From: a virus
Virus record (IMG/VR): IMGVR_UViG_3300037095_000059
Reading direction: 5' to 3' (one strand)
DNA: 64,000 nucleotides
A program made the position numbers and the translations under genes. The notes beneath the pieces were generated by a model that searched no databases, was not told where the DNA came from, and saw nothing but the letters and a program-made list of their open reading frames with translations. Within the stretch, counting starts at the first letter, position 1. Every line of letters begins with the position of its first letter. Of this stretch, positions 1 through 63,717 are shown piece after piece.

Positions 1-3000
1 GGTTCCGGTGACAGCCTGTCCGATAGCCTGTCCAGGGATAGGCATCATGTTGTGGAACACGTCAGCCCACAGGTCTTCCGGACCTAGCTTACGCCCGAAG
101 GAGTCGCGCTGCGTCAGTAGTTCTTGTCCGGCATGAATTGTGGGCGACAACCGGCCCTTGATGAAGCCCACAGGGTCTGTAGCAGCGTGAAGAAGGTCAG
201 TCGGCAACGTCCTCATCCCGAAGATGATTTCCTTGCCTTCCTTGTTCTTGACAGCCAAGCCGAAGGGGGCTTCCAAGTGCGGACTTCCCGTGGACAAGGT
301 GTTGAGGACTCTTGCGATTCCCCACATTCCCAGGGTCATCATCACGACCTGTTTGCGGCCTATGTTACCTTCTTCTCGGTTGAAGAGTCGGGCCCCACTT
401 CTCATTTCCGATTCTAACCAGTCCGGGGCCAGAAGCATTAAGCGGCCCCAGTCCTGCGTAGTTGTGGAGCGCCCCATCGCTCTCCAATTGATACCGCCAA
501 AACTTTCGTTTGCGTGCAGAGCCGCAGCTTTGGCCACGCGGTCATTGGACCACTCTGGGTGAGACGCTCGGTACTGGTCAAACAAGTGCTCGCCCGCCGT
601 CGCTTTCATGGCAGGAATGTAACGTTTGAACAAGAAGTCCTGATACCAGTTCATGGAGTTGGCAATTGTGTTTCCAATTCCTGGAATCCTGCGCAAGGCA
701 TCACCCCCCGTGGACAAGCCTTCGGACATCTGTTGTTGGCCCCGGAAGTCCGTTCCAGTGGTGTAGCCCTGGCGAACCATTGCCAGGAGCTTCGTTTCTG
801 AATGTGGATTAGATGGGTCGATCTTAGCCCCATCCAAAAGGTCAGGTCCGTGGAGAGTAAACGGGTTGATCCCAGTCATCACACCACGGAGCCCAATCTG
901 GACCATGTGGAATGGAGACAGAGACAGCAGGACATGCTTAGCCGCAGACCCCGCGCCCAACAACGCTTTGCCTATGGGGTTTTTGGCGATTCCAGACTCT
1001 TCCAAGCCCAGCCTGTTCTTCAGGTACTGAGCAAATTCGGGGTGGGCCTTGATGTCGGCATCAACTAGGATACCGTGCCCGGCGGAGTCGTTGGTCACAA
1101 AGTTCCAGCCGCGCATAGCGTTGTGATCCAGCGTGACGTAGTCCTGCGGGTCCCAGGCATAGACGGGCTTCTGTGCGCCGTTGAACTCGCGCAGGCCCGA
1201 GTAGTCTTTGTTCGCCAGCATGGACTTCAGGTACATGAGGTCGGTCCGAAGTTTATTGTTTCCCATTTCGTCGTACTGTGCGTTCTTACTCAGAGCCTGC
1301 TTTTCCAGACGATCAATTGCCATCCCGATGTTGTCCGGATGAACGTGGGGCGTTATGTCCTTGATGGTGCCGTCGGCCAGGAAGCGGTCGAAGTACCCCG
1401 TCTTCTTCATTTCGTCAATGTTGCTCTGCGCGATGTTGATTTTCTGCACGCGGTCCGGGGAGATGAATGTCTTGGGGTCTTCCCCGTCTTGACCAGTTAC
1501 AACTCTGCCCGATCCCGCGAGAACCACCGCCGGTCGGCCATCGCTTCCCCGGGAGAAATCGTCTCTCAGGCTACGAATGAACTGCCGGTTGGCTGCGGCC
1601 TTGATGATTTCGGCTCTGCCCCTGGCCATGTTGTTCACTATGTCGAACTTCAACTGCTTGGGGGATTTCAACAGCCCGGTCAAGGTTGAGTCATATACGC
1701 GGCGGCGTGCCATCGTTACGTTGGTGGCAAACTTTCCGTTCTTGGCATCAGAGGATATAACTCGACCTTCCGGGTTGGAGTTATCCCATGTCCGCTGGAA
1801 GTAGTCGTCGATGTAGTGTTGCAATATGTCGTTTGTCGAGCCTATTTCGAAGCTGCGGTCGTGCTCGTTCCTGATGAAGTCCATTGCGGATTTCATCTGG
1901 GGGTCAGGCGCGGTGGTTGCCGCTTTCCTATGCACACTCATCACCAAGTCCCGGTATTCCTTGGGCTTGTCTTTGAAGACGTTATTCTGGATCATGTCGT
2001 CGATGTTCGGCGGGAGATGTCCATTATCCGGACTTTCTCTTGAGAACAGCGGCTGACCTTGATGCAGGACAGACTCACGCATGGAATCTGTGATGGGGAA
2101 GTAGGGAACAGCAGAAGTTTTGACTTCCTTTTGGATATTTAACTTTCCGCCGATTTTTTCTGCGTAGGCTTCCGATCCAAAATCCCGTACAGCTTCTGCA
2201 AAAGGAATCCGGCTATAACGCACTTCATAAGCAACAGCCCGGGCTTGCCCCTCAAGTTGAGTTCCTTCTGCTTCCGAAGCTATTTTGTCTAGGTCCGCTG
2301 TCGATAGGGTCGGTCCCTCATATATTCTTGTTTTAGACCCGTCAGATACCTTGATCTTCGTCTCCCCAACCTTAGCCCCAAACTGTTTTCCAAGTTTGTT
2401 GGCAACCTGCGGGGTGATCTGATCGTAGTAGCTTTCGAATCCTTCCTTCCGGGGCATGCTCGCTCCGGTTGGCTCTGTCTGCATCCGATCCCAGAGTTTC
2501 TTGGTGACAGCGTCTACCTTCTCACGACCAGCAATATGCAGGACCCGGTGTACAATTGCTCTCAGGTCGGCTTGGGACTTTACTTGTCCTCCACTTTTGT
2601 TGAGCAATCCCCGGCGCGTAGCTTCGCCTTCTAGATCAACCCCTCCGGCATTTCCGCCGTGCTGATATGTTCCAGCAACCGTCCATTTTCCGTCTTCGGT
2701 CTTTTCCCAATCGAAGCGTTCCGACCCCCACCGGTTGAAGTGTTCAACTCCCGGGGTCCACGAGATTCCATCATATCCGTTTTCGGCGGCGTATCGGATC
2801 ATTCTCTTGAAGAATAATCCGGTCCATTCGTCTGTCTTCTTGAAGGGGGCGTCGGGGACTCCAGAATGGACAGTCTCTTTGCTGATTTCGTTCAGACGAG
2901 CCTGTAGCTCCGGATGAACGTCTCCGGCGTCCGGTCTTGTTGAGTGGGTCCGGTCGTATTCTCGGGGGTCTAGTTCTCCCGTTTCCGGGTCTATCGCATG

Positions 3001-6000
3001 AACCTTGACACTCCAAACACGATCCCATCCCTTTCCGTTGGGGTCTGCGGGATGGAAAGAGATTACCTTGTCTTTTCCTCCGTAGCTGTTTACAATATTT
3101 CCTGGCTTGAAGTAGTTCGCAAGTTCTTCGTCGGTTACCGGGTCCTTCAGTCTTTCGCGGAGATCGGACGCTTCCTTACGGAGACTCTCAATTCTTGCTG
3201 GGTCGAGATTGTACCCCTGTGTCCTTCCTTTCTGGTGCCAATCAGATTGCAGTTCTTCCAGGTGCAGCAGCTTCTCGCCGTTGGGGCCTGTGCGGTCGTT
3301 GAAGCGGACATGGCCTACTACGTTGGGTTCGTCCCAGTGAGCGGAGCGGAAGTCCTCGTTATAATCGAATACATTCTTCGATTGCCCGTAGTTTGGAAGC
3401 GTCATCAACAACTCTCGGTACGAACCTGGTTCTGCTCCGGGGAGGGTGTATGTGCCGAATTTGGCGGGGTCAAATTTTTCTCCGGCATCCCACCTGTTTA
3501 CCGCACTATCAACGACCTCTCTTTGGTCTTCAGAAAGACCACCATAATCTCTTCCATAAAGCTGTCTGGAAATCCTATCCGGCGGGGGAGTGTTTTCCTG
3601 TTTCGTAACCTCTTGTACCTGCAAGTTATTCGCCGCCAGGTAGTCCTTGACTTCTTCCGGACGCACGGGGGCGCTTCCCTTCTCGCGGAGGAAGTCAGAG
3701 AGACCTGTGTATTTTAGCTCGTCCGGTTTTACGCCGTTGTTCTCCAGCATTTTGAGAACGGTGTCGGCGGGCATGGGTCCTTGCATCCGGCTATCAACTA
3801 GCTGGTTGGACTTCAAGTACCAGACGGGAGCGCGGTTATCCTTCTCTTTGGAAAACAGTCCATTATCCGGACCGAATTCTGTGTCAAATAATGAAGCTCC
3901 TGATTTCCGAGCAAGGTGTGAGGCTATCCGCGAGTCTCTGCGGGCGGCTTCGAGTCTACCAGCCGCGTTAAGAAGTTCAGGACTAGAGCCCGCAGCTTCT
4001 CCGGTGGAAGGTTTTCTTGGGACGTAGGTTTCGAGTTTTGTGTCGAGGGCATTGAGGTCTCCTCCAAGTTTCTTGATTACGCCCCTGATTTCGGGGTTGG
4101 TTTTGAGCATGTCCGCAAAGTCAGCAGAGTGTTGGGCCACAAGTTCGGGTGTTAGCAGTCCTTGCTTGATAATTTCTTGCGGGGGTATCCAGCGGTCGTT
4201 CCCCCAACCAGACAGTTCGGCCAGAGATTTGATGAAGCACCAGATTGCGGCCTGCGCCTGGCGAGGCTCGACGCCCTCCGCCTTGGCCGCTTCGCGGACC
4301 TTGGCAGACATGGCGTCATAAACTGCTGGTTTGTTAATCCGATTCGGGTCGTGATCTCCGAAGACCGCCATCCAGGTGTCGTTTGTGACCCGGCTTGAAT
4401 CCTTGCCCAGGTTCTTTGTGAAAGAAGATACCTTGGGGCCGGATAGAGGCTCTCCCTGTAAGGCGTGAATAGCGTTGCCCATTCTTGCAGGCAGGTCTAC
4501 GCCTTGTGTTTCTCCACGACCGGCGAGAACTCTGTAGAGAGAAGCGTTCTTGCTGGCGACCTTCCCGTCTTTCCAGGTTACGTCCTGGGGGCGGCCCGCC
4601 TTGTCCCACTTGGCCCAGAGGTTGAGGGCCATGCGCAGGTTGGCTTGAACCGGCTGAACCGGGGATAGAGCGGCGGTAAAGTTCAGGAACTTGTCTTTGT
4701 CCGCTTTCCCCAGCCACGGAATTCCAGAGTCGATCAGAGCGTCGAAGGCCCGGGTCGATCTTTCATACCACAACTGTCCGGCTTTGCCCGCACGAATAGC
4801 AGCCGTCCACTCTTCGTGGTCGGGCATGGAGTTGAAGGCGGCGGTGAGCAGGTTCTGCTTTTCGGGTGTGTCGTGCTTCTGAACTTCCTCTGGGGTAAGG
4901 TGGGACTTGATGTCTTCCCACTCTGCGGGTTTTTCTCGGGAAGCCAGTCCGGATAATGGACTGATTGGTTCTCCGCGAAGAGCAGCTTTTTGAACGGCTT
5001 CCCCGCCTTGGTATGAGTCTACCCGTACCCCTTGTCCGGGTTCGTAAGGTCCTTTGTACGTTGGGTCATACGCCATGAACACAACGTCGGGATGGCCACC
5101 GTTGTACTGCTTCATTTTGTCGTAGTTCCAACCTTCGGGGGCATATGCGTCATTCCACGGAAGACGAGCCACGACCTTCATTCCCTCCCGAGCGTTTATT
5201 GCCGGAAGGTAGGTATCGAATCCGTCGGACCGACGCCCTCCATTTTCAATAGCAACGCGCATCAAATTGGCATTAGCTCTTGGGGTATCAGTAGGATGAG
5301 AGAACTTCGACACAATAAGGTCTCCATCCAGAGCGATTCCGGTCTTTCCGTCCGGGCTCATAAAGGTTTTCATTCCTTTATACTCTTCTGGAGAGTAGAC
5401 AGAAAGCTGCTGATCCGCTCCGGAGGACTCGTGCGCTTTCTTGACTTGGGAAATAGCAGAGTGGAACTTCTCCGCCGACGTTGGCACTATGCCATAGTCA
5501 CGGAAAACTTTGACAGGTTCGAAGGATTTGACTACGTTTTGGGCTCTGTACCCGGAGAAGCCTTTTTGCTGAAGCAGCTTTTCGAGGTTATATTCAATCG
5601 GATCGCCATTTTTGCGAGTTAATTTGCGGGCCTGGTCTACAAGACTGAGCGGGTCTTTCGCCCTGTCGTAGATTTTGTTGTAGTCAAGGTTCGCAAAATA
5701 CTTCTTGGAGTTTCCCTGGACAGCGGGTTCTCTGTAGGATTCTTCTCCGAAGTACGTTCCTGGAACCTGTAAACGATCCCGTTCGGCCCCGCGCACACCT
5801 GTTCCTGCCAACTCCGGGTTGGTTTCCGTGAAGTCTGGTTTTCTGCTCCAATGGTAGACGCGGCGAAGGTCCTTGTTTTCGTCCAGTTCCCGGACGCGGG
5901 AAGCTAGACCTTGCTGTTTTCCTTTAGTAGGCTCAAATCGAACTTCAGCCTGAGTGCCCTCAGATTCTGCTGCTTTGGTAGCTTCTTCGTGGGTTGGGAA

Positions 6001-8424
6001 AGAATCTAGGAGATGGCCTTCCCCGTCGTAGACGTACCATTCTCCTTCAGCACCTTGGCCAGCCCCGCCTTCCCCTCCTTCTTCCAGGCGTCGTACACTT
6101 CCAGCGCCCGTTCCTTGCTCGGCCAACCCACTTGCTCTTGCTTCTGCTGCTTGTCTTTCGGCATAAATGTCCTCCACGTGTTGTCTTGCAATTTCGTTGA
6201 TGCGGGCAAATTTCTCCCGCGCTTGGGGTCCGTGCTTGGCTTCAAGTTCCTTGAAATACTCATCTAGGAAATTGATTCTCTCTGTTTTTGATGCGCCCGT
6301 GTCCACGCCCGCCTGATATTTAGCAGCGGTCTCGGCCACACGAACAACCGGGTTTTGGTCATAATCCAGCGAATCAAAATATGAATGAGTCACTGTTGGT
6401 ATTATACCATGTAAACGGTCCCAGGGGGAACCCGGTTCCACTTTAATTTCTCCGCTTGGAAGCCTTGTGGCCCCGTCTAGGAGGTTGTATACCTCCCCGT
6501 TTTGGGAGAGCCATCTTTGCTCGGCGTGTTGAGCTTCTTCTTGTGCAACTAGAATTGAAAACTCAGGATTCTCCCCCGGGGTTTTGAGGACAGATGTAGG
6601 TCCGGCGAGTTGACGGGCCTTGGAAATCAACTGTCCGATTGAACTCTCTGGATTGAAACGACTTAGGAGGATGTCCGCTTCCCTCGGAGAGTAGTTTACG
6701 CCCGTGCCCGGAGCTTGAGCAATCGTTTGAAAGTCGCCGTAATCTTCTGGACTGAGCCAAACAACAGGCCGACCATCTGAGCCTACACGCACTTCTCCCG
6801 AAGAGGTAGTAGCAACGGACTTGGTTCCTGCTCTCGGCGGGGCTTCGTTGTCGGCTAGAGGGGTTCCCAGCGGGGCCGGTATGGGCTGGTACTCTCCACC
6901 ACCTTGGGCTTCAACCAAAACGTTATGTAGTACCCGCGCCTTTTCCGGGTCGGTTTCTGTCGCTATACGGGTTTGGCATTCGGCGAGGCGCTCGGTATTG
7001 AAGGCTTTATCCTCTTTGGACAAACCGAGAACTGGGTGTGCTTTTCGGAGACCTAGCAGGTCGAAGGCTGTGTTGTACTTGTTGACAGCGTCCTGCTCAG
7101 CGACCGCGTGGGCGGCCTCCCTGTCCTTGTTGACTCTCTCTATTGCCAACCAGCGGTCGGACAGCCTGGGAACGTCTGTGGAGCCTAGCAGGGGGTTAAA
7201 CAACTCGCCCGCCGAGCGCAAAGCGTGCGGGGCCCCCAAAGCTCCCATAGCCCCGGAGGCGAACATTTCTGTTCCATATTCCCAAGCGTGATCGGCGTCC
7301 CCTTCTTTCAGGGCGTCGAAGAACCGGGGCGACATCTGAGCCGCTGTTTCCAACTGTTGGTAGGTGAATCCCCAGTTCATCACAGTGTTCGCCGTGTCGG
7401 CGGCCTTGGTCAGGGCCCCAAAAGACACATCGGGCGCTGCTTTGTGCAGAATCTGGAAGGCTCCTCTTTGGAGAAGGTTTCCTCCCAGAAGGTCCTTGGT
7501 CACGTCCAGTTTTTTATCGGACAGTATGGCAGTTGCTTTTTTCCAATTGTCTACGTTGTACCCGGCGTCACGAACCGCGTCAGCCAGGGGGAGGAAACCG
7601 GACTTGGCTTTGGCTACCGTATCGCCCGTATCCGACAGAGCCTTCAGTTCGTCGGTGGAAAACCCGGGCATCTTTGTGTTCGCCGTGGCGATAGCAGACC
7701 TTTCCGCTTCGGAAAGTGTTCCTTCCTTTAGGGCAGTCCTCTGTGCTTCGCTCAAGCCTACTTCAGACAGGTTCTTCTGAAGTTCTTCCGAGGCTAGTTC
7801 TGCGTCCCTGTTGATGGGGAAGGTTAGAGCCCGGGCTCGTTCCAACAAACCCAGGTCGTGTCCGCCCGCTTTCAGGGCACCAGAGATGACCGGCTCAATA
7901 TCGGGCATACTCTTGGCGGTCTTCAGCGCGATTTTTGACGCACTTATGGCGTCGGCGATCTGAGCGGCGGTAAATTCCCCAGACTCTTTGAGCGCAGTTT
8001 CGCCCGCTCCGGCGATAAATCCTCCGGAGCCGAAAGTTGCGGCAGCTAGAGCCAGCGAAAGTGGACTCGTGAGACCCGCCGCGATGTGCTCCACACCGCG
8101 CCCAAACCCGCCCATTCCCAAATCTTCGGGAAGACCAAAGACAGAGGAGTCGAGCAGGGGGGTGTTCGCCCAATCCCAAGCGCGAGAGTACCAGCTTTGA
8201 CTTGGGTCTTGGTACAAGTGCTGAGGAGGAGTGGCGGGGCCAACAGATTGTTGTCCATTACCCGGACTAGAAGCGGAAGAACCCCCAAATAATAGGCCAA
8301 ACGCAGAAGACCCAGAACCCCCAACAGCCGGGGCCGCTGCGCCAACGGCGGCCTCTCCTGTCGAAGGAGTCTGGGTTTCTTTGTTTTCCGAAGAGAAAAG
8401 CAGGGAGTAAGCTGAATCGGGCAT
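1..8424 (-). CDS. giant (>2808 aa) multidomain virion/ejection-type protein; C-terminus lies beyond the window edge
   Basis: Manual translation from ATG 8424-8422 (MPDSAYSLLFSSENK...) to position 1 met no stop. No other minus-strand ORF in the track uses this frame, and it is absent from the track only because its stop is outside the window. It has Gly/Ala-rich hydrophobic stretches at both ends. It follows three low-complexity proteins, as in podovirus internal-core gene blocks. Confidence 0.8.
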   Translation of the reverse strand, partial: MPDSAYSLLFSSENKETQTPSTGEAAVGAAAPAVGGSGSSAFGLLFGGSSASSPGNGQQSVGPATPPQHLYQDPSQSWYSRAWDWANTPLLDSSVFGLPEDLGMGGFGRGVEHIAAGLTSPLSLALAAATFGSGGFIAGAGETALKESGEFTAAQIADAISASKIALKTAKSMPDIEPVISGALKAGGHDLGLLERARALTFPINRDAELASEELQKNLSEVGLSEAQRTALKEGTLSEAERSAIATANTKMPGFSTDELKALSDTGDTVAKAKSGFLPLADAVRDAGYNVDNWKKATAILSDKKLDVTKDLLGGNLLQRGAFQILHKAAPDVSFGALTKAADTANTVMNWGFTYQQLETAAQMSPRFFDALKEGDADHAWEYGTEMFASGAMGALGAPHALRSAGELFNPLLGSTDVPRLSDRWLAIERVNKDREAAHAVAEQDAVNKYNTAFDLLGLRKAHPVLGLSKEDKAFNTERLAECQTRIATETDPEKARVLHNVLVEAQGGGEYQPIPAPLGTPLADNEAPPRAGTKSVATTSSGEVRVGSDGRPVVWLSPEDYGDFQTIAQAPGTGVNYSPREADILLSRFNPESSIGQLISKARQLAGPTSVLKTPGENPEFSILVAQEEAQHAEQRWLSQNGEVYNLLDGATRLPSGEIKVEPGSPWDRLHGIIPTVTHSYFDSLDYDQNPVVRVAETAAKYQAGVDTGASKTERINFLDEYFKELEAKHGPQAREKFARINEIARQHVEDIYAERQAAEARASGLAEQGTGAGSVRRLEEGGEGGAGQGAEGEWYVYDGEGHLLDSFPTHEEATKAAESEGTQAEVRFEPTKGKQQGLASRVRELDENKDLRRVYHWSRKPDFTETNPELAGTGVRGAERDRLQVPGTYFGEESYREPAVQGNSKKYFANLDYNKIYDRAKDPLSLVDQARKLTRKNGDPIEYNLEKLLQQKGFSGYRAQNVVKSFEPVKVFRDYGIVPTSAEKFHSAISQVKKAHESSGADQQLSVYSPEEYKGMKTFMSPDGKTGIALDGDLIVSKFSHPTDTPRANANLMRVAIENGGRRSDGFDTYLPAINAREGMKVVARLPWNDAYAPEGWNYDKMKQYNGGHPDVVFMAYDPTYKGPYEPGQGVRVDSYQGGEAVQKAALRGEPISPLSGLASREKPAEWEDIKSHLTPEEVQKHDTPEKQNLLTAAFNSMPDHEEWTAAIRAGKAGQLWYERSTRAFDALIDSGIPWLGKADKDKFLNFTAALSPVQPVQANLRMALNLWAKWDKAGRPQDVTWKDGKVASKNASLYRVLAGRGETQGVDLPARMGNAIHALQGEPLSGPKVSSFTKNLGKDSSRVTNDTWMAVFGDHDPNRINKPAVYDAMSAKVREAAKAEGVEPRQAQAAIWCFIKSLAELSGWGNDRWIPPQEIIKQGLLTPELVAQHSADFADMLKTNPEIRGVIKKLGGDLNALDTKLETYVPRKPSTGEAAGSSPELLNAAGRLEAARRDSRIASHLARKSGASLFDTEFGPDNGLFSKEKDNRAPVWYLKSNQLVDSRMQGPMPADTVLKMLENNGVKPDELKYTGLSDFLREKGSAPVRPEEVKDYLAANNLQVQEVTKQENTPPPDRISRQLYGRDYGGLSEDQREVVDSAVNRWDAGEKFDPAKFGTYTLPGAEPGSYRELLMTLPNYGQSKNVFDYNEDFRSAHWDEPNVVGHVRFNDRTGPNGEKLLHLEELQSDWHQKGRTQGYNLDPARIESLRKEASDLRERLKDPVTDEELANYFKPGNIVNSYGGKDKVISFHPADPNGKGWDRVWSVKVHAIDPETGELDPREYDRTHSTRPDAGDVHPELQARLNEISKETVHSGVPDAPFKKTDEWTGLFFKRMIRYAAENGYDGISWTPGVEHFNRWGSERFDWEKTEDGKWTVAGTYQHGGNAGGVDLEGEATRRGLLNKSGGQVKSQADLRAIVHRVLHIAGREKVDAVTKKLWDRMQTEPTGASMPRKEGFESYYDQITPQVANKLGKQFGAKVGETKIKVSDGSKTRIYEGPTLSTADLDKIASEAEGTQLEGQARAVAYEVRYSRIPFAEAVRDFGSEAYAEKIGGKLNIQKEVKTSAVPYFPITDSMRESVLHQGQPLFSRESPDNGHLPPNIDDMIQNNVFKDKPKEYRDLVMSVHRKAATTAPDPQMKSAMDFIRNEHDRSFEIGSTNDILQHYIDDYFQRTWDNSNPEGRVISSDAKNGKFATNVTMARRRVYDSTLTGLLKSPKQLKFDIVNNMARGRAEIIKAAANRQFIRSLRDDFSRGSDGRPAVVLAGSGRVVTGQDGEDPKTFISPDRVQKINIAQSNIDEMKKTGYFDRFLADGTIKDITPHVHPDNIGMAIDRLEKQALSKNAQYDEMGNNKLRTDLMYLKSMLANKDYSGLREFNGAQKPVYAWDPQDYVTLDHNAMRGWNFVTNDSAGHGILVDADIKAHPEFAQYLKNRLGLEESGIAKNPIGKALLGAGSAAKHVLLSLSPFHMVQIGLRGVMTGINPFTLHGPDLLDGAKIDPSNPHSETKLLAMVRQGYTTGTDFRGQQQMSEGLSTGGDALRRIPGIGNTIANSMNWYQDFLFKRYIPAMKATAGEHLFDQYRASHPEWSNDRVAKAAALHANESFGGINWRAMGRSTTTQDWGRLMLLAPDWLESEMRSGARLFNREEGNIGRKQVVMMTLGMWGIARVLNTLSTGSPHLEAPFGLAVKNKEGKEIIFGMRTLPTDLLHAATDPVGFIKGRLSPTIHAGQELLTQRDSFGRKLGPEDLWADVFHNMMPIPGQAIGQAVTGT
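2029..2043. repeat. 15-bp GTCC-N7-GGAC motif copy
   Basis: GTCCATTATCCGGAC; inside the giant ORF, encodes SPDNG. Confidence 0.9.
3858..3872. repeat. 15-bp GTCC-N7-GGAC motif copy
   Basis: GTCCATTATCCGGAC; inside the giant ORF, encodes GPDNG. Confidence 0.9.
4947..4961. repeat. 15-bp GTCC-N7-GGAC motif copy
   Basis: GTCCGGATAATGGAC; inside the giant ORF. Confidence 0.9.
8253..8267. repeat. 15-bp GTCC-N7-GGAC motif copy
   Basis: GTCCATTACCCGGAC; inside the giant ORF, encodes SPGNG. Confidence 0.9.
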
Positions 8425-10257: not shown

Positions 10258-10652
10258 TATTTGTTCTCCAAGAAGTAGCTAAGTGGTGTGGTCCGGGAAA
10301 TGGACGTGTCTTTCAGGGCCCTCTTCAGGAACTTCAAAATCTGATCTTGTCCAAGTTTTTCATTGAATCCCAAGACCCTCATAAGGTTTTCGAGTTTGTC
10401 GTCCTTTTTAATACCGGCGCGAGACTCCCCTTTGATCTTGATCTCCAGGTCAAAGCAAGAAGCACGATACCCGGCGAGCCACGACGTAAACAACCTCATG
10501 CCTTTTTCATCTATCGAGTTTTTGCCCGGGCGACTGAAGTTCAAGACTCCAATTGGATTACGAGCCTGGTAGAGGTCTCCATCGGGGTTTGTGGTTGCCC
10601 CTTTGAGGTGCGCCAAAGCATCAACTAGGGCTTCTACGCGATTAACGGACAT
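10257..10652 (-). CDS. hypothetical protein, 131 aa
   Basis: Track ORF. Its stop overlaps the start of the 606-aa gene by 1 nt. Confidence 0.6.
   Translation of the reverse strand: MSVNRVEALVDALAHLKGATTNPDGDLYQARNPIGVLNFSRPGKNSIDEKGMRLFTSWLAGYRASCFDLEIKIKGESRAGIKKDDKLENLMRVLGFNEKLGQDQILKFLKRALKDTSISRTTPLSYFLENK
10291..10305. repeat. 15-bp motif copy (variant)
   Basis: GTCCGGGAAATGGAC; in the 3-prime end of the 131-aa CDS. Confidence 0.8.
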
Positions 10653-10706: not shown

Positions 10707-11420
10707 CTATCCTCCCGACATCACTTTAGCGGCCCCGCCCATAGCTCCGGTAGCCAGACCCATGATGTTGTTCATCTCTTCTTGGTTGGCAGCCTGAACG
10801 GCGTTGGCCTCGGAGTTGGCGGAGTTGCTCATGCCCGTGGCGGCGTTGGCCATACCCGTAGCGTTTTGCTGACCGGCCACACTTAGTTCTCCGGATAAGG
10901 CGTTGTTGTAGTTCTGATAGCCTTGGTTGTAGCTGGCTTGCAGGTTTTGGGTCAGGCCGGATTGGGTTTCGTTTGCGGCGGCGGTTGCGAGGGTGGCCGC
11001 TTGCTGCGAAGCTACGCCGGAGGGCAGCATGGAGTTTCCTCCACCTTGGGCGGCTTGGTTTTCTTGCAGAGTCTTTTTCGCCGAGGCGTACTGCTGTCCA
11101 GTATTCTGAATCACCGAGGAGTTCAGGGTGTTCATTTCCTGCGTGTTGTAGCCCTGCTGGTTCGAACCCGCAGCGATTACAGAAGCGAACGTCGTGTTCA
11201 AAGACCCCAGGATGCTTTGGTTCGCCGCAAACTGTGTGTTTACGTCGTCAAGATAAGTCTTTTGCGCGGCAAGCTCGGCGTCCTGAGCTTGTGTTTGGGC
11301 TGCCGAAGCACCTTTCAGGAGAGCAAAGGGGCCCGTCCGGGTAATGGACTTTTCATAGAGCAGGATATAGCGGGATTGGCGCTCGCTCCAAACATAGACT
11401 GCTTTTGTAGTGACCTTCAT
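10707..11420 (-). CDS. Gln/Asn/Ala-rich structural protein, 237 aa
   Basis: Track ORF. Strongly Q/N/A/G biased, as in internal virion or ejection proteins. Confidence 0.6.
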   Translation of the reverse strand: MKVTTKAVYVWSERQSRYILLYEKSITRTGPFALLKGASAAQTQAQDAELAAQKTYLDDVNTQFAANQSILGSLNTTFASVIAAGSNQQGYNTQEMNTLNSSVIQNTGQQYASAKKTLQENQAAQGGGNSMLPSGVASQQAATLATAAANETQSGLTQNLQASYNQGYQNYNNALSGELSVAGQQNATGMANAATGMSNSANSEANAVQAANQEEMNNIMGLATGAMGGAAKVMSGG

Positions 11421-12232: not shown

Positions 12233-12601
12233 CTACGGCATCCTTGAGAGTAAGATGTTGATGCTGTCGCTTAAACGAGAAAACCCGTCTCGTAGGTCTT
12301 CTCGCAAGCCGTATAAAGCGTCGTTGGTCTTGTCCAGCTTATCGTTGGTCTTTTCCTGCTCGGCTTGAATGTGCGCTAAATGGTTGTCTTTGATTTGGAC
12401 AAGGTCGCCGCTGGCGGTATCAAGCTTATCCCCGTATTTTTCAAACTTACGGGCGACAGAATACAGCCGCTGAAGAAATAGCAGGAGCGCAGCCCAGCCC
12501 GCAACATACTGCCAGTTTTGAGAGAGCCACACACCGGGGTTCCAAGGAGAATTAAACATTTGTCGGCCTAAAGCAAGGGATGAGTCTCTAACGTAGTCCA
12601 T
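12233..12601 (-). CDS. membrane plus coiled-coil protein, 122 aa
   Basis: Track ORF. The ATG GAC start is embedded in a motif copy. Hydrophobic segment WQYVAGWAALLLFL. Confidence 0.55.
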   Translation of the reverse strand: MDYVRDSSLALGRQMFNSPWNPGVWLSQNWQYVAGWAALLLFLQRLYSVARKFEKYGDKLDTASGDLVQIKDNHLAHIQAEQEKTNDKLDKTNDALYGLREDLRDGFSRLSDSINILLSRMP

Positions 12602-12610
12602 TATCCGGAC
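12596..12610. repeat. 15-bp motif copy
   Basis: GTCCATTATCCGGAC; the minus strand reads GTCCGGATAATGGAC and supplies the ATG GAC start of 12233..12601. Confidence 0.9.
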
Positions 12611-16185: not shown

Positions 16186-16200
16186 GTCCATTATCTGGAC
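16186..16200. repeat. 15-bp motif copy
   Basis: GTCCATTATCTGGAC; 17 nt upstream of the 1018-aa gene start. Confidence 0.9.
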
Positions 16201-17371: not shown

Positions 17372-17386
17372 GTCCGGTTAATGGAC
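17372..17386. repeat. 15-bp motif copy
   Basis: GTCCGGTTAATGGAC; 10 nt upstream of the start at 17362. Confidence 0.9.
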
Positions 17387-21724: not shown

Positions 21725-22659
21725 CCGCGCCCTTGCTGAACTTGCATCGTTTGGCGCATAGAGGCTAACTTACTGTCCAGCCACAGGTTACGTTGTGTAA
21801 TGTTTAATCCTTCGGACACTCCTACTAAATCTGTGAGGAAAAGCTGCAAGGCTCCCTGAGAGCGGGGGTCACCGCAATACTCGGCGCACTTCGCCAACAT
21901 TCCCTCGTTGTAGATATACGATAGGTAGTCTGGTACGGGGGACCACGTTTGCGTGAGCGCGGAGAATTGAGGAGCAGATTTCTGGTACTCGACAACAATG
22001 TTGTAAATCTTGTCCGGGGCCGGGGTAAGGCGGAAGGTTATGTTGTCGGATGTGTCTCTGTATTGCGCCGCAATCCTGGTCATTTGGTTGGGCAGCGTCT
22101 CCGCCCCCATAACCAATTCGTTCTGCAACTCGAAAGCGTAGTATCCGCTGCTCGGGTCGTAGGCCACAGCTTTTTCGATCCATCCGAAAGAGGGTAGATT
22201 GACTTTGTAGTCTGTATTCCCGATTATAGTGGGAAAAGTTGGAACAGAAGGCGAGGCCCCCGCTCGGTTCCAAGACCAGGCGAAGGGGGGAGCAAGAATA
22301 GTCTGCATCACCCAGTCTGCGTTCGAGAAGGCGGGGTCAGAAGACGTGGAGGTGTTGACCTTCAAGCCGGACCCGGTCCCCCCTGTAGTGACAACTCCGG
22401 TGGCTCCGTTGATGTACCCAGCCCCGCCGGTAAGAACGTTTAGTCCGGTTACTGGACCTGTTGCTCCACCCCCACTGATATTGGTTACTTGCGCGGTTCC
22501 GCCCGAGCCCCCAGCCACCGTAACAACATCCCCAACGGTGTACGCAGTTCCACCCGCGCTGACCGTCAGGCTAAATAGCGCGGAGAAAGTCAGCGGGCGG
22601 TTGTACAGGTATTGCTGGGCCAATCCAATGGTCCTAGACAGTTGTATGGTGCTTGCCAT
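21721..22659 (-). CDS. structural protein with Gly-rich N-terminal domain, 312 aa
   Basis: Track ORF. Related in layout to 16268..17362. Confidence 0.6.
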   Translation of the reverse strand: MASTIQLSRTIGLAQQYLYNRPLTFSALFSLTVSAGGTAYTVGDVVTVAGGSGGTAQVTNISGGGATGPVTGLNVLTGGAGYINGATGVVTTGGTGSGLKVNTSTSSDPAFSNADWVMQTILAPPFAWSWNRAGASPSVPTFPTIIGNTDYKVNLPSFGWIEKAVAYDPSSGYYAFELQNELVMGAETLPNQMTRIAAQYRDTSDNITFRLTPAPDKIYNIVVEYQKSAPQFSALTQTWSPVPDYLSYIYNEGMLAKCAEYCGDPRSQGALQLFLTDLVGVSEGLNITQRNLWLDSKLASMRQTMQVQQGRG

Positions 22660-23731: not shown

Positions 23732-23740
23732 TAGCTGGAC
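23726..23740. repeat. 15-bp motif copy
   Basis: GTCCATTAGCTGGAC; supplies the ATG GAC start of 23081..23731. Confidence 0.9.
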
Positions 23741-24999: not shown

Positions 25000-25014
25000 G
25001 TCCATTAACCGGAC
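25000..25014. repeat. 15-bp motif copy
   Basis: GTCCATTAACCGGAC; 14 nt upstream of the start at 24986. Confidence 0.9.
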
Positions 25015-38733: not shown

Positions 38734-38748
38734 GTCCGGGTAATGGAC
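38734..38748. repeat. 15-bp motif copy
   Basis: GTCCGGGTAATGGAC; 5 nt upstream of the terminase ATG. Confidence 0.9.
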
Positions 38749-40626: not shown

Positions 40627-40641
40627 GTCCGGGTAATGGAC
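40627..40641. repeat. 15-bp motif copy
   Basis: GTCCGGGTAATGGAC; 19 nt upstream of the start at 40608. Confidence 0.9.
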
Positions 40642-45820: not shown

Positions 45821-46186
45821 AAAACTTTTGTCCATTAACCGGACAATATCCTTCTTCAACTGTGCAACCTTCGCGGGCGGCATGTACAACTCGCCCTTCT
45901 TGACCAAGGCTATTCCTCCCTTTTTCACCGTGCCGCCTTTGTGAAAAGTAGCGGGAGACGCTTTGCTAAAATTGGGAGTCGGCAGGCTCGGGGTGTAGCT
46001 GGGGCCCGGGGCTTGCCTTGTATTCGCTTGTAGATCGTCTGTTGTTGCTGCGCGAGCAGCGGCGTTCTTGGCTTCAGCGGCCTGCATAGCAGAGCCCACG
46101 GCCCCGACGGCGGACCCTACTTTCTGCTTAGTGGTCTGCGGTGTTTTGGAGTCCGGTTTGTCGGTGCCTACCATTGCGTTTGCCAC
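45812..46186 (-). CDS. hypothetical protein, 124 aa
   Basis: Track ORF. The 3-prime end overlaps the tRNA by 9 nt and contains a motif copy (..VRLMD..). Confidence 0.5.
   Translation of the reverse strand: MANAMVGTDKPDSKTPQTTKQKVGSAVGAVGSAMQAAEAKNAAARAATTDDLQANTRQAPGPSYTPSLPTPNFSKASPATFHKGGTVKKGGIALVKKGELYMPPAKVAQLKKDIVRLMDKSFGR
45830..45844. repeat. 15-bp motif copy
   Basis: GTCCATTAACCGGAC; near the C-terminus of the 124-aa CDS. Confidence 0.9.
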
Positions 46187-47781: not shown

Positions 47782-47796
47782 GTCCATTACCTGGAC
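47782..47796. repeat. 15-bp motif copy
   Basis: GTCCATTACCTGGAC; tRNA-array spacer. Confidence 0.9.
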
Positions 47797-49299: not shown

Positions 49300-49460
49300 G
49301 TAAGATTGTACTCCAGATTATAAGAGATGAATTTTATCACATCTCCCGCTGCCGGGGTATTAAGTCCATTGTCTGGATGAAGTTCGCAGTATTTGTCCCA
49401 CGCAGTCTTGTGCGGACATGGTCTGCTGTAATAATTAGAAATACATTCTTCCAGATTCAT
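49290..49460 (-). CDS. small protein, 56 aa, inside the tRNA array
   Basis: Not in the track. ATG 49460 after GAGGAAGC. MNLEECISNYYSRPCPHKTAWDKYCELHPDNGL...; the stop overlaps the tRNA-Asp 5-prime end. Confidence 0.4.
   Translation of the reverse strand: MNLEECISNYYSRPCPHKTAWDKYCELHPDNGLNTPAAGDVIKFISYNLEYNLTRA
49364..49378. repeat. 15-bp motif, degenerate copy
   Basis: GTCCATTGTCTGGAT; encodes HPDNG in the 56-aa ORF. Confidence 0.5.
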
Positions 49461-49993: not shown

Positions 49994-50080
49994 TGGCGGA
50001 AGATGAAGTATCGAAACCTTGTCCATTATCTGGACAGCACCGGGTTCGAGCCGGTTTGGGCACCTTGCCCGCCATCTTCC
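49994..50080 (-). tRNA. tRNA-Ser (CGA), class II, extra arm formed by the 15-bp motif
   Basis: 87 nt. Acceptor GGAAGAT/ATCTTCC, arm ACCGG-CTCGAAC-CCGGT, extra arm GTCC-AGATAAT-GGAC. The T-stem is weak. Confidence 0.65.
50021..50035. repeat. 15-bp motif copy
   Basis: GTCCATTATCTGGAC; forms the variable arm of tRNA-Ser(CGA). Confidence 0.9.
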
Positions 50081-51480: not shown

Positions 51481-52047
51481 CTAAGAAGAGTACAGGTAAG
51501 GAGCCCACCGGGCGTCTTCAGCCAACCCCACAAGCCTCAGCAACATACGGGACGTATGGATCGTCAACCGACCAGGGGTGTGCAGCAGCTTCATGCCCGC
51601 TTCGTCCGGAGTCCGGTCGCCCTTCTTCCGATTGCATTCCCGGCAGCACGCACAAAGGTTATCCCACCAAAAGCCACCCCCGCGAGATTCGGGCAGGATG
51701 TGGTCCAGTGTCAAGACAACTTTACACGGCTTCCCATTTACAATCCGGGTTGAGCCTTCTTTGGCCCCGCAGTATTGACACAAATACCTGTCCCGGGCGT
51801 AGATGTTTGACCGAGTCAGAATCGAAATCCGGATCGGAATTTTTTTGTAGTTCCGCAGCCGGATCACACACGGCAGCAGGATCGGAGGATTCTGTCCATT
51901 TCCCGGATAAACCGCAACCCCGTAGTCTTCTTCCGTGACCGCCGCACCTTTGACCAGGAGCTTGATCGCGTTCTTGGCCCGGCAAATGCTAACTGGTTCG
52001 AACGAGGCATTAAGCACGAGTACGGCTTTGTTAATTAAATTTCCCAC
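51481..52047 (-). CDS. HNH endonuclease (McrA-like small HNH family)
   Basis: AVLVLNASFEPV... and LDHILPESRGG...NLCACCRECNRKKGDRTP. Start placed at GTG 52047 after GAGG; ATG 52143 (the track start) is an alternative. Confidence 0.75.
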   Translation of the reverse strand: MGNLINKAVLVLNASFEPVSICRAKNAIKLLVKGAAVTEEDYGVAVYPGNGQNPPILLPCVIRLRNYKKIPIRISILTRSNIYARDRYLCQYCGAKEGSTRIVNGKPCKVVLTLDHILPESRGGGFWWDNLCACCRECNRKKGDRTPDEAGMKLLHTPGRLTIHTSRMLLRLVGLAEDARWAPYLYSS

Positions 52048-56086: not shown

Positions 56087-56101
56087 GTCCATTACCCGGA
56101 C
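56087..56101. repeat. 15-bp motif copy
   Basis: GTCCATTACCCGGAC; at the start of the rightward gene block. Confidence 0.9.
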
Positions 56102-56851: not shown

Positions 56852-56866
56852 GTCCAGATAATGGAC
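56852..56866. repeat. 15-bp motif copy
   Basis: GTCCAGATAATGGAC; intergenic. Confidence 0.9.
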
Positions 56867-57895: not shown

Positions 57896-58072
57896 ATGAC
57901 AGTGCAGGAGTTGATTGACAAGCTAAACACAATGCCCGCAGAATTACGGAGTGCTGAGGTTGTAGTTCAAACCGAAAATGACTACGGCGGCGCGGAGTCG
58001 ATAACGGCAAAGTGCGGAGAAAATCAGTTCTGGTGGGCGCCCGCACAAGTTATTATCTCCGCACGATACTAG
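57896..58072 (+). CDS. hypothetical protein, 58 aa
   Basis: Not in the track. The ATG follows GAGGCGCAAGACA. MTVQELIDKLNTMPAELRS... Confidence 0.5.
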   Translation: MTVQELIDKLNTMPAELRSAEVVVQTENDYGGAESITAKCGENQFWWAPAQVIISARY

Positions 58073-58086
58073 TCCAGGTAATGGAC
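58072..58086. repeat. 15-bp motif copy
   Basis: GTCCAGGTAATGGAC; abuts the preceding stop codon. Confidence 0.9.
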
Positions 58087-58675: not shown

Positions 58676-58690
58676 GTCCAGATAACGGAC
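58676..58690. repeat. 15-bp motif copy
   Basis: GTCCAGATAACGGAC; intergenic. Confidence 0.9.
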
Positions 58691-58718: not shown

Positions 58719-58907
58719 ATGATTGACGTTGGCCTAAAACTCGCAAGGCGATACGCTCGTGGTGAATGTATTGCTTGCGGCCACAAAGTTTGCTCGTGCA
58801 AGACGAAAGGCAAGCTCCGCAACCATCCAAAGGGCATTGGACGCGCCGAAACAAGAGAGCCGTCTATGACCATAATCCGGCACGAAGCCGGGCAACTGTC
58901 CGGGTAA
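58719..58907 (+). CDS. Cys-rich basic protein, 62 aa
   Basis: Track ORF. AAGAGGGG RBS. Confidence 0.5.
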   Translation: MIDVGLKLARRYARGECIACGHKVCSCKTKGKLRNHPKGIGRAETREPSMTIIRHEAGQLSG

Positions 58908-58912
58908 TGGAC
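58898..58912. repeat. 15-bp motif copy
   Basis: GTCCGGGTAATGGAC; its TAATG is the stop of 58719..58907 and the start of 58907..59275. Confidence 0.9.
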
Positions 58913-59349: not shown

Positions 59350-59979
59350 ATGGAAACCACGATTCCCTTTACCGGATTTTACGAATCGGACCACGAGTCA
59401 CTGATCGAGAACGAATTGGAGCAGATGTTCTCGGACAATAACGGCGACCCTTTGCCCAGTGCGGGCGACTCCTGGGAACACATCGACTGGGCCAAAGTCC
59501 ATCTGGCCTATGCTCAAGAGTACGCGGGGCAGTTCTTCGCGCTGCTCTCGGACGCGGCGAAGATCAAGATTCCATACAAGTTTGTGGAGTTGACTTCGCC
59601 CGGCTCCTACAACTTCACAACTGATCGAATTTTCTGCACGGTTTCGCAACGCACGGCGCGGGCCTTGTACAAGCTGGCGGACAAAACCGCGCTGGACAAG
59701 CTGATCAGAGACAAATTCACGTCCTATGACGGGTTCACGTCCTACTATGACAATTCCCTCACGGCATGGCCGAAAGACGTTTTGAAGTGGGACGCAAACC
59801 AGATCGGCACCCTGGTGGAGTCTGTTTTCTTCCAGTTCTTCGCCCGGAAGGACTTCCACGCATACGAAATGATGGTAGATGAAAACGGCGAGATCGACTC
59901 CCTGCTGTATGACGCCTTGGACGCGGAAGGGCGCAAGATTCTCAAAACCGAGAGAGCAACGGCAGACGGCGAAGAGTAG
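59350..59979 (+). CDS. hypothetical acidic protein, 209 aa
   Basis: Track ORF trimmed to the ATG after GGAGGAAACA. Confidence 0.6.
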   Translation: METTIPFTGFYESDHESLIENELEQMFSDNNGDPLPSAGDSWEHIDWAKVHLAYAQEYAGQFFALLSDAAKIKIPYKFVELTSPGSYNFTTDRIFCTVSQRTARALYKLADKTALDKLIRDKFTSYDGFTSYYDNSLTAWPKDVLKWDANQIGTLVESVFFQFFARKDFHAYEMMVDENGEIDSLLYDALDAEGRKILKTERATADGEE

Positions 59980-59993
59980 TTCATTACCCGGAC
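59979..59993. repeat. 15-bp motif, variant
   Basis: GTTCATTACCCGGAC; abuts the stop codon. Confidence 0.7.
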
Positions 59994-60044: not shown

Positions 60045-60293
60045 ATGGACCACCAAAAACTAGCACGGATTAACAACCTGGGGCGCGAAATTATGGCCCT
60101 GGAATCACGGCTGGCTTCTGTCCAGTTTCACATTCAGGCCGCACGCGAGCGTTTGAATGAAGACAACCTGACTTTCCGGGATTGGAGCGAAGCCGCGCAC
60201 GAGTACGGCGTATCCTCCGCTTCTGCCTTTGCCCTTGACCACCGCTTGACTATCGTCCGGGGCCGGTTTCACTTCGAGGCGGACACGATTTAG
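60045..60293 (+). CDS. coiled-coil protein, 82 aa
   Basis: ATG after GGAGGACAAC. Confidence 0.5.
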   Translation: MDHQKLARINNLGREIMALESRLASVQFHIQAARERLNEDNLTFRDWSEAAHEYGVSSASAFALDHRLTIVRGRFHFEADTI

Positions 60294-60307
60294 TCCATTA
60301 CCCGGAC
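60293..60307. repeat. 15-bp motif copy
   Basis: GTCCATTACCCGGAC; overlaps the stop codon. Confidence 0.9.
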
Positions 60308-60911: not shown

Positions 60912-60926
60912 GTCCAGATAATGGAC
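60912..60926. repeat. 15-bp motif copy
   Basis: GTCCAGATAATGGAC; 15 nt upstream of ATG 60942. Confidence 0.9.
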
Positions 60927-62192: not shown

Positions 62193-62207
62193 GTCCATTA
62201 CCTGGAC
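62193..62207. repeat. 15-bp motif copy
   Basis: GTCCATTACCTGGAC; intergenic. Confidence 0.9.
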
Positions 62208-63702: not shown

Positions 63703-63717
63703 GTCCATTAACCGGAC
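63703..63717. repeat. 15-bp motif copy
   Basis: GTCCATTAACCGGAC; intergenic. Confidence 0.9.

Follow-up and report, generated by a model that had tools for sequence, protein, structure and literature searches.

A short near-palindromic element is repeated throughout the window, i.e., the whole 64,000-nucleotide (nt) stretch of viral DNA analysed here (IMG/VR record IMGVR_UViG_3300037095_000059), which is part of the Joint Genome Institute (JGI) contig 3300036787 Ga0334798_000076 (the parent contig; 110,535 bp). The element has the 15-base consensus GTCC-RGNTAAT-GGAC and is found approximately once per 1.6 kb in this phage of ~110 kb and in its relatives. It is a real, non-random, genome-wide element, shared family-wide and under strong selection, the target of which is the DNA rather than protein or RNA. 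Its copies are built from two half-sites, are evenly spaced and are labile in orientation. We give a probability of roughly 0.5 to the reading that they are recognition sites on double-stranded DNA for a putative phage DNA-binding protein with two heads, forming an operator-like array; from the sites we infer the existence of such a reader protein, its identity and the effect of its binding.

Abundance and family-wide occurrence

Expected counts were obtained from dinucleotide-preserving shuffles of the window. The pattern GTCCNNNNNNNGGAC (GTCC-N7-GGAC) matched 41 times in the 64-kb window against 1.26 expected, the highest value in any shuffle being 4, and the fuller consensus GTCCRGRTAATGGAC with up to two mismatches matched 44 times against 0.32 expected. 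A preliminary description of this DNA, made from its letters alone, had argued that a 15-mer of this frequency could not be due to chance, and these counts bear it out. Forty of the 41 exact matches represent the true motif and all 40 share the core RGNTAAT; the remaining match (GTCCTAACATTGGAC, 45175-45189) lies inside tRNA-Ile and was discarded as a chance occurrence. The earlier tally of about 39 copies, near copies included, becomes 40 exact copies plus near copies at 31924, 49364, 51894 and 59979 (Table 1); across the family, two-mismatch copies are about as frequent as chance predicts. The first site occupies 2019-2033, so that the start of the range previously given as 2029 was 10 nt off. 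Both orientations occur, as had been noted, with 25 copies in sense and 15 in antisense, and the 12 copies counted before in the rightward block correspond to 11 exact copies and one near copy. Approximately 28 of the 40 sites are intergenic or on a gene edge, in agreement with the boundary placement first described, and five, not four, lie in the giant open reading frame (ORF; 1-8424, minus strand).

The element also takes part in the gene boundaries themselves. Upstream ORFs in the window are terminated by its TAA or by a TAG overlapping its first G (G1), and its ATG supplies the start codon at 12601 and 23731, as had been proposed, and likewise at 27067. At 58907, where a start was also proposed, the ATG is only a possible start, and it is the TAA that ends ORF 58719-58907.

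Oriented alignment of the window copies showed that conservation stops at the edges of the 15 bp. A larger set of sites added a weak pyrimidine (Y) preference at -1 and a weak purine (R) preference at +17, part of this signal being due to TAG stops that overlap the first G, and nothing else beyond the 15 bp. No second conserved element was found within 60 nt of 387 de-duplicated sites, and the four commonest variants of the 15-mer occurred in no paper of the literature searched.

Scans of IMG/VR with two variants of the motif returned many related contigs with several copies each (L-numbers, e.g., L196 or L238, denote loci of relatives and W the window). Portal relatives at 59-98% amino acid (aa) identity mostly carry 0.2-0.75 copies per kb, and the distant relative Tunturi_3 carries no copies. 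Among the bacterial matches listed, none of 120 genome stretches held more than one copy, and only single chance hits were seen. The clade of the window has the consensus GTCCRGNTAATGGAC, that of L196, L199 and L202 has GTCCRAATAATGGAC and a low-GC clade has GTCCAGAAAATGGAC, the clade-specific differences being G6/T8, A6A7 and A8; this drift by clade fits a co-evolving reader encoded by the phage.

Selection on DNA and in-place inversion

Copies inside coding sequence separate selection on DNA from selection on protein. The giant-ORF sites near aa 1518 and aa 2131 occupy the same codons in orthologues that are 50-75% identical. For the site at 2019, the motif is present at the same codon position in L238, L241, L271, L232 and L247 (59-69% aa identity), and for the site at 3858 the position is kept in L238, L241 and L232, with an identity of 0.87 in the motif against 0.51 in its flanks. 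In a small, ungapped comparison, identity at third codon positions was 0.8-1.0 inside the motif against 0.27-0.38 in the flanks. The preliminary description had named a lack of positional conservation in relatives as evidence that would speak against it; positions are conserved, including these codons of the giant ORF.

At several of these places the motif is kept but reversed. Near aa 1155 of the giant ORF, the window encodes SPLSG with an antisense copy and L238 encodes SPENG with a sense copy at the same codon. Within the coding sequence (CDS) 36301-36693, the same codons read GPNNG in the window and SPNNG in L192 (sense), SPLSG in L204 and SPLPG in L022 and L054 (antisense). Such flips alter the encoded peptide (PNNG vs PLSG or PLPG) while the motif stays perfect. 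At this site the motif is absent in L044 and L028 and arises by substitutions with no indel, and therefore it is not an inserted mobile unit.

The same behaviour is found outside genes. At 29062 the core reads AGGTAAT in the window and ATTATCT in L035, L054, L189 and L190, with near-identical flanks. The junction before the portal gene (36015) carries a sense copy in W, L184 and L210 and an antisense copy in L197, L201 and L202; in L197 and L201 its overlap with the stop is identical to that in the window, and L202 has the copy directly after a TAA stop. At the portal-stop junction (33874) the copy is flipped in L212, and the low-GC clade carries the palindrome GTCCATTTAATGGAC. The copy at the terminase start (38734) is flipped in L207, and that at 60912, after the g18 gene, in the 85%-identical relative L031. 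At 29579, L192, L196 and L202 carry a tetraloop hairpin, CACCC-NNNN-GGGTG, and L011 and L199 a similar short ACCC...GGGT hairpin. Flips could arise step-wise, via palindromic intermediates that still function, or in one step through template-switch inversion at the 4-bp arms. They are also a warning that orientation statistics from one genome can mislead.

Half-site architecture

Each site comprises two 7-bp half-sites, which face each other in inverted orientation across a central base pair. The half-sites are of two types, A (GTCCRRN) and B (GTCCATT), and usually combine as A-T-B'. Among 461 unique family sites, A/B' accounts for 83%, A/A' for 3% and B/B' for 1%. In a clade at 59% portal identity (L320), the palindrome GTCCAGA(T/A)TCTGGAC makes up five of nine sites, and in a clade at 63% portal identity the half-sites differ by one base. 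The arms GTCC and GGAC are invariant and never covary, no base-pair covariation is present in the flanks, and the flanking preference for Y(-1) and R(+17) is symmetric. As an isolated hairpin the motif is weak, with folding energies of -3.4 to -5.5 kcal/mol for RNA and -1 to -3 kcal/mol for DNA. TA...TA flanks were not in excess.

Distribution, spacing and orientation

Spacing is far more even than random placement would give. Its coefficient of variation (CV) was 0.44 in the late block, compared with 0.95 for random placement, and 0.41 in the early block, compared with 0.88, and random sampling of gene boundaries yielded a CV of 1.08 (P < 1e-4 for even spacing). Neighbouring sites were on average 1.7 kb apart in the late block and 0.76 kb apart in the early one; extrapolated from the window, a 110-kb genome would hold ~70 sites. 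The motif-free stretches at 50.0-56.1 kb and 63.7-67.5 kb (parent contig) hold lineage-specific genes, which fits sites being built in place over time.

Gene context was counted with crude gene calls on 77 family loci with 351 unique sites. Sixty per cent of these sites are intergenic or at gene edges, against 23% of non-coding sequence, an enrichment outside genes of approximately 5-fold; 54% adjoin the upstream stop or overlap with it. The distance to the following start is typically 10-50 nt, and in a subset the ribosome-binding site begins 1-4 nt after the motif. Most coding copies of the window outside the giant ORF are no more than 75 nt from a gene end. In places that lack a gap, the motif occupies tolerant spots, namely Pro/Gly-rich protein linkers, the position of a tetraloop hairpin in an ORF-free stretch that seems to be structured, and the long arm of a tRNA-like fold.

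Two earlier claims on such placements fared less well. The copy at 50021 had been described as the extra arm of tRNA-Ser(CGA), and the minimum-free-energy fold is indeed a cloverleaf with the motif as its long arm (49990-50080, minus strand); however, no tool calls it a tRNA, with nothing from ARAGORN and nothing from Rfam at E ≤ 1. With its weak-looking T arm, the cloverleaf may be a pseudo-tRNA. Other copies had been placed in introns, but a search of 27-33 kb against Rfam gave no intron, even with the threshold at E ≤ 0.1. An ORF-free stretch of ~1 kb (28664-29704), with hairpins conserved in relatives, adjoins a LAGLIDADG endonuclease ORF (30304-31203, minus strand), and the two together have the look of an intron or intein region, but Rfam detected neither a group I nor a group II intron there. 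In some portal relatives, LAGLIDADG_3 inserts bring the portal protein to ~1040 aa.

Sense copies make up 68-72% of sites in the family, 11 of 11 in L196 and ~27% in the L321 clade (~73% antisense). The possibility that antisense copies are decaying was rejected: the sense fraction is 0.68 for perfect copies and 0.64 for copies with one mismatch, and hence both orientations are maintained. Orientation is a lineage-dependent bias and follows no rule; the TAA and ATG with which sense copies can serve tightly packed genes may account for some of the sense excess. Sigma-70-type promoters and intrinsic terminators in 55-64 kb were at chance level only, and no promoter was seen at the 56087 copy. 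The gene of a Xer-like recombinase (see below) has three sites in the window's phage; clustering of sites there was rejected as a general feature, distant relatives having none at this gene.

Table 1 Copies and near copies of the 15-base element in the window
Position	Strand	Feature	Remarks
2019..2033	-	giant-ORF copy GTCCGGATAATGGAC	~aa 2131, encodes SPDNG, sense; first site
3858..3872	-	giant-ORF copy	~aa 1518, encodes GPDNG, sense
4947..4961	+	giant-ORF copy	~aa 1155, antisense, encodes SPLSG
5881..5895	-	giant-ORF variant copy GTCCGGGAACTGGAC, A/A'-like	~aa 844
8253..8267	-	giant-ORF copy	~aa 53, encodes SPGNG
10291..10305	+	variant GTCCGGGAAATGGAC	34 nt before end of CDS 10257-10652; just upstream of next gene start
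11335..11349	+	motif copy	antisense, 71 nt inside 5' end of CDS 10707-11420
12596..12610	-	junction copy	upstream TAG overlaps G1; motif ATG (12601) starts ORF 12233-12601
16186..16200	-	intergenic copy	16 nt upstream of 1018-aa gene (13113-16169)
17372..17386	+	intergenic copy	antisense, 9 nt upstream of start 17362
20381..20395	+	motif copy	antisense, 46 nt inside 5' end of 994-aa gene (17457-20441)
22443..22457	+	variant GTCCGGTTACTGGAC, A/A'-like	within SU10-adaptor-like gene 21721-22659
23726..23740	-	junction copy	upstream stop 3 nt before; motif ATG (23731) starts 216-aa ORF
25000..25014	-	intergenic copy	13 nt upstream of start 24986; kept in L042, L210
27062..27076	-	intergenic copy	motif ATG (27067) starts ORF 26831-27067; kept in L019, L042, L206, L210
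29062..29076	+	copy in ORF-free stretch 28.66-29.70 kb	core inverted in four relatives
29579..29593	-	copy in ORF-free stretch 28.66-29.70 kb	takes the place of relatives' tetraloop hairpin
31924..31938	+	near copy GTCCGGGTAATAGTC, 2 mismatches	may be chance
32646..32660	-	intergenic copy	41 nt upstream of 379-aa gene (31465-32604); sense copy at junction in 18 loci
33874..33888	+	variant GTCCGGGAAATGGAC	antisense, 3 nt after portal stop
36015..36029	-	copy between upstream stop (TAG overlapping G1) and portal start	
36444..36458	-	copy within CDS 36301-36693	encodes GPNNG
38734..38748	+	motif copy	antisense, 4 nt upstream of terminase large-subunit start (38729)
40627..40641	+	intergenic copy	18 nt from each neighbour gene
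42477..42491	+	motif copy	35 nt inside 5' end of 536-aa gene (40916-42526); kept in L007, L055, L206, L210
44375..44389	-	copy between tRNA array and gene 44080-44328	
45830..45844	-	motif copy	18 nt before end of CDS 45812-46186
47782..47796	-	copy in tRNA-region spacer	kept in L055
48177..48191	-	copy in tRNA spacer beside tRNA-Thr (48100-48173)	
49364..49378	-	near copy ATCCAGACAATGGAC, 2 mismatches	may be chance
50021..50035	-	copy as long extra arm of tRNA-like cloverleaf, anticodon CGA	minimum-free-energy fold
51894..51908	-	near copy ATCCGGGAAATGGAC, 2 mismatches	inside otherwise motif-free 50.0-56.1 kb
56087..56101	-	copy in ORF-poor divergent region	135 nt upstream of first rightward gene
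56852..56866	+	intergenic copy	4 nt upstream of Twister-P5 ribozyme
58072..58086	+	copy abutting stop of ORF 57896-58072	
58676..58690	+	variant GTCCAGATAACGGAC	3 nt after stop of ORF 58403-58672
58898..58912	+	motif copy	TAA ends ORF 58719-58907; ATG may start next ORF
59979..59993	-	near copy GTCCGGGTAATGAAC, 1 mismatch	
60293..60307	-	antisense copy abutting stop of ORF 60045-60293	
60912..60926	+	intergenic copy	flipped in 85%-identical relative L031
61546..61560	+	intergenic copy	
62193..62207	-	antisense intergenic copy	kept in L031, L043
63036..63050	+	variant GTCCAGATAACGGAC, intergenic	L021, L031, L043 carry GTCCGGGTAATGGAC there
63703..63717	-	antisense intergenic copy	

The phage, its family and neighbouring features

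No DNA match of the window was found among 50,697 deposited phage records. The portal and adaptor proteins match the SU10 families (SU10_portal, SU10_adaptor), and the nearest terminase large subunit, 27% identical, is that of Tunturiibacter phage Tunturi_3. In a rough gene map, the giant ORF (minus strand) runs off the window edge, a leftward late block extends to ~55.2 kb and a rightward early block begins at 56.2 kb. Many contigs of relatives measure 104-113 kb, and none exceeds this length. Family genes beyond the window code for a T7-gp4-like primase-helicase, a family A DNA polymerase and a PD-(D/E)XK nuclease beside a UvrD-like helicase. A 290-aa Xer-like tyrosine recombinase (L317:17723-18595, on the parent contig ~7.5 kb right of the window) has intact catalytic residues and is kept across the family at 41-64% identity; as every long contig is a unit-length genome, its role may be dimer resolution or genome cyclisation and not integration.

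A 195-aa protein with a full sigma-70 region 4 is also encoded outside the window (L274:5505-6092, minus strand; homologues in L214, L223, L256, L271 and L314), with 32-47% identity among several family members. Its sole full-length match is a weak one to an extracytoplasmic function (ECF) sigma factor (E = 0.37), and it parallels the sigma factors of phiEco32-like phages. In L214 and L271 the gene shares a stretch of sequence with the 3' part of the giant ORF, from which we place it, in this phage, probably just left of the window. The giant ORF itself encodes at least 2808 aa (2322 aa in L241), with DUF7178 as its sole Pfam hit and BLAST hits that suggest internal repeats.

The tRNA region of the window comprises 28 tRNAs and a permuted transfer-messenger RNA (tmRNA); this two-piece tmRNA (50728-51037, minus strand; Rfam 94 bits for tmRNA_permuted and 53 bits for alpha_tmRNA) sits in an array of at least 28 tRNA genes (45035-51293, minus strand). 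The window also has a twister ribozyme, Twister-P5, in an early intergenic gap (56870-56927, plus strand), conserved in L255:1259-1313, L260:1900-1958 and L296:2916-2973, with a type II hammerhead ribozyme nearby in one relative (L255:1540-1608). We know of no role for self-cleaving ribozymes in a phage early operon. A link between the ribozyme and the motif copy at 56852 was rejected, their adjacency not being kept in relatives.

A cluster of probably mobile nuclease genes (51481-54549, minus strand) lies inside the largest motif-free stretch and includes an HNH endonuclease (51481-52143), an Endonuclease-VII-like ORF (52079-52342), a SprT-like protein (53201-53554) and a protein combining Endonuclease VII with a sigma-region-4-like helix-turn-helix (HTH; 53551-54216); a second SprT-like gene is found at 56946-57587. 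The gene 62224-62967 shows a 54-bp tandem periodicity by BLAST self-offsets (62362-62722, plus strand), and its protein matches the YdcK beta-solenoid repeat and bactofilin families, the repeat number apparently differing among relatives. A small early protein (56465-56719, plus strand), one of the few early proteins kept in distant relatives, has a sub-threshold match to the S-adenosylmethionine lyase family, which suggests an anti-restriction role. The ORF-poor ~1 kb between the divergent blocks (55220-56230) holds one motif copy only and G/C-rich hairpin-like runs (e.g., 55280-55330 and 55440-55500), and could hold the origin, the main promoters or small RNAs.

Interpretation and alternative explanations

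In the operator-like array that we favour, the reader would be a helix-turn-helix dimer or heterodimer of the operator type, or a two-domain monomer. The family keeps approximately one site per 0.7 kb in the early block, compared with one per 1.7 kb outside it; most sites fit into the short space that separates a stop codon from the following ribosome-binding site, and in places with no such gap they are written into tolerant coding linkers or RNA hairpins. The bound protein would act genome-wide and independently of orientation, most plausibly as a transcriptional roadblock or global silencer, and next most plausibly as a genome-organising or genome-protecting protein for which the sites are points of loading or anchoring.

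Several observations weigh against this array. No classical repressor emerged when ~45 window proteins were scanned with Pfam and PHROGs and ~83 proteins of a relative with Pfam; these scans gave only the HNH-HTH endonuclease, the sigma-region-4 protein and the Xer-like recombinase. The A/B' form strongly outnumbers the palindromic forms, which a plain homodimer does not account for, and orientation is non-random, at ~2:1 sense overall and 11/11 in L196. No copy was shown to overlap a promoter, even spacing is unusual for operators, and roadblocks in late genes and in the giant ORF would require the protein to be absent late in infection. Since no integrated prophage copy was seen and all long contigs are 104-113 kb, a lysogenic silencer is unsupported.

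Another reading, possible but doubtful, is that the motif is a self-tag and no gene-regulatory operator, written evenly along the phage's own DNA, coding sequence included, so that a phage-encoded machine meets a tag within ~2-3 kb and in this way separates phage from host DNA. This machine might load at the sites as a clamp or condensing protein, or might be the PD-(D/E)XK/UvrD helicase-nuclease, attenuated there as at a phage-private Chi; the unlike half-sites would then reflect a heterodimeric or two-domain reader.

Explanations based on RNA synthesis or RNA structure are less credible. A promoter element for a phage-encoded sigma factor, with transcripts starting just downstream of sense copies, would suit the SU10_portal and SU10_adaptor matches (phiEco32-like phages share the portal and adaptor fold families), the 195-aa sigma-70 region 4 protein of relatives, encoded near the 3' end of the giant ORF, the NTAATG held by the motif, just as phiEco32 and 7-11 promoters share TAATG (PMC8948821), and the ~70% of copies in sense, many of which are 10-50 nt upstream of start codons. 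We nevertheless consider it improbable: the ~30% antisense copies are equally well preserved and reach ~73% in one clade, flips occur in place and also inside genes, and palindromic variants lack TAATG, all of which equally argues against a directional promoter or terminator, two roles raised in the preliminary description. Moreover, no second element is present within 60 nt, though the sigma-like protein has region 4; in the subset with a ribosome-binding site 1-4 nt after the motif there is no room for a start site 6-9 nt downstream; and ~70 copies, as extrapolated over early and late blocks, contrast with 6-8 promoters in phiEco32 and 7-11. It is likewise unlikely that the motif works as a small RNA or single-stranded DNA hairpin (4-5 bp stem, 5-7 nt loop), as a signal for intercistronic processing or stability or for lagging-strand priming. 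Its stem is invariant, never covaries and is not lengthened by the flanks, the hairpin has the weak folding energies given above, and the conserved loop sequence has its complement equally kept in antisense copies; with arms that never covary, unpaired flanks and both orientations equally kept, the RNA-processing hairpin raised at the outset is disfavoured. Whilst the motif does replace the relatives' tetraloop hairpin (29579) and form the long arm of the tRNA-like fold, a signal for cleavage would be detrimental in a tRNA-like gene or structured RNA, and the sense bias that fits a hairpin is reversed in one clade. Further support for a hairpin comes from R5, which can pair with U11 (A-U or G-U) in 195 of 202 sites, from the 1-2 kb spacing, which resembles Okazaki-fragment length in a family that encodes a T7-gp4-like primase-helicase, and from the self-cleaving ribozymes of the early region, which show intergenic RNA cleavage in the family.

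Enzymes that cut or rejoin DNA provide further candidates. Crossover or recombination hotspots that shuffle genes between co-infecting relatives, perhaps via the Xer-like tyrosine recombinase, are as improbable as a promoter. Inverted arms around a 7-bp asymmetric core are the generic layout of a tyrosine-recombinase core site and a catalytically intact recombinase is conserved in the family, but the conserved arms measure only 4-6 bp with information near zero beyond, and the palindromic cores of the L320 clade would abolish directionality. The early region resembles a cassette array with gene content varying between relatives, and sites lie within ~15 nt of the ends of many BLAST homology blocks; this proximity is expected anyway, because sites are conserved islands in divergent spacers. 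Identical direct cores 1-2 kb apart in the apparently essential giant ORF (2019, 3858) would let a crossover delete essential sequence, the one indel examined (61349-62150 vs L031) is not bounded by sites, and no rearrangement bounded by sites was found. We give even less credence to a site-specific enzyme that modifies the DNA at the sites or nicks it there, the latter in the manner of T5-like or phiKMV-like phages. A long, asymmetric target such as this motif is typical of homing-endonuclease-like enzymes, sites are evenly spaced on both strands, and the window encodes HNH and Endonuclease VII proteins, one with a helix-turn-helix tail (53551-54216); these endonucleases, however, look like sporadic mobile genes, with few and divergent homologues among the family loci examined, and nicking does not explain why the sites would stand beside stop codons. 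A selfish or mutational by-product with no phage function, e.g., a miniature mobile repeat, is very improbable. Copies are short and palindrome-ended, many are in non-coding gaps and some lineages hold decayed ones, but sites arise by substitution with no indel (36444), show no target-site duplication or empty sites at the portal junction examined, are perfect at the same codons across 25-50% protein divergence and have an even spacing that needs selection; no transposase or RAYT-like gene was found.

To our knowledge, dispersed short repeats occur in several phage groups and their function is known only for Cluster A stoperators. A dispersed operator-like phage repeat is not new in itself, whereas even spacing, codon-level conservation and in-place flipping appear to be undescribed for such repeats. 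The present element is an unusually clean case, with hundreds of related metagenome genomes carrying it and selection that overrides both codon choice and amino-acid sequence. Its even spacing and its hetero- and homo-combinations of half-sites across clades add to this, and all four traits jointly make the reader protein and its logic directly testable.

Comparison with known systems

The operators of phage 434 (ACAA-N6-TTGT) have invariant 4-bp arms and a non-contacted centre and are bound, as double-stranded DNA, by a helix-turn-helix dimer. They share with the present element a length of 14-15 bp, inverted 4-bp arms that do not vary and an asymmetric but constrained centre; there are, however, six operators at two control regions in phage 434, as opposed to ~70 sites spread evenly, by extrapolation, in the present genome. 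No Cro/cI-like protein was found in the scanned proteins.

Stoperators function in one orientation relative to transcription and lose this function on reversal (PMC9283540); they are asymmetric 13-14-mers bound by a monomeric two-domain repressor (PMC9283540, PMC13313380). The element resembles those of Clusters A and CA in copy number, with more than 20 per genome (25 in the Cluster CA Rhodococcus phage Rasputin; PMC13313380) and 40 in 64 kb here, in intergenic positions or overlap with gene ends, and in a consensus that differs between subclusters or clades. Genome-wide control by one phage protein is a likeness that we propose. In contrast to the fully asymmetric, single-orientation stoperators, the element has dyad arms, palindromic A/A' and B/B' variants, ~30% antisense copies and flips. 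The stoperator precedent of the preliminary description thus stands as the nearest functional analogy, and for density and location, but gives way on the orientation rule, with 28-35% of copies antisense and in-place flips. Phages with stoperators are temperate and have an immunity repressor, one of the copies being the operator of the early lytic promoter; here a Xer-like recombinase is present, no repressor appeared in the scans, no promoter was seen at 56087 and the long contigs are all unit-length at 104-113 kb.

Other systems share single features. The phiEco32 gp36 promoters (tAATGTAtA) and those of phage 7-11 (GTAAtg-N16-aCTA; PMC8948821) are short conserved elements with TAATG in phages with related virion-module fold families, and a sigma-like protein is encoded in relatives of the present phage; they differ in having 6-8 copies, all co-directional with genes, whereas here copies are far more numerous, in both orientations and flipping. 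The T1-like phage TLS has eighteen intergenic repeats of 21 nt, of unknown function and likened by their authors to stoperators (PMC11447400), but all run along transcription ~76 nt upstream of starts and lack dyad arms. Core sites of tyrosine recombinases have arms of ~9-13 bp and an asymmetric overlap of 6-8 bp, compared with 4 bp per side plus a weak Y/R two positions out. Hairpins of the T7 RNase III type show compensatory stem changes and a single orientation, unlike the invariant arms and both orientations found here. Repeats like repetitive extragenic palindromes (REP) or miniature inverted-repeat transposable elements (MITE) come with empty sites or target duplications and a mobilising enzyme, in contrast to the origin by substitution and the absence of empty sites at the portal junction.

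By our comparison, the closest known phenomenon is the 17-bp dyad repeat of the Cluster O mycobacteriophages (5'-TGTTCGGNNNCCGAACA), with 34 copies in Corndog and no known function (PMC4351075). Both elements are dispersed in more than 30 copies per genome with invariant inverted arms (PMC4351075), and in both, copies occur in intergenic positions, a short way into the 5' ends of genes and also far inside ORFs. The asymmetric centre of the Cluster O repeat has no consistent orientation relative to transcription, and here orientation is labile and lineage-dependent at ~2:1 sense. The two are unrelated in sequence (TGTTCGG-N3-CCGAACA in Cluster O) and in phage lineage, and the 7-bp arms and 3-bp centre of Cluster O contrast with 4-bp arms flanking a 7-bp core that is conserved and asymmetric, an arrangement for which two different half-sites are the better description. 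In-place flips, even spacing and codon-level conservation are found here, with none reported for Cluster O, and the outcome of work on the present element could also explain repeats of the Cluster O type.

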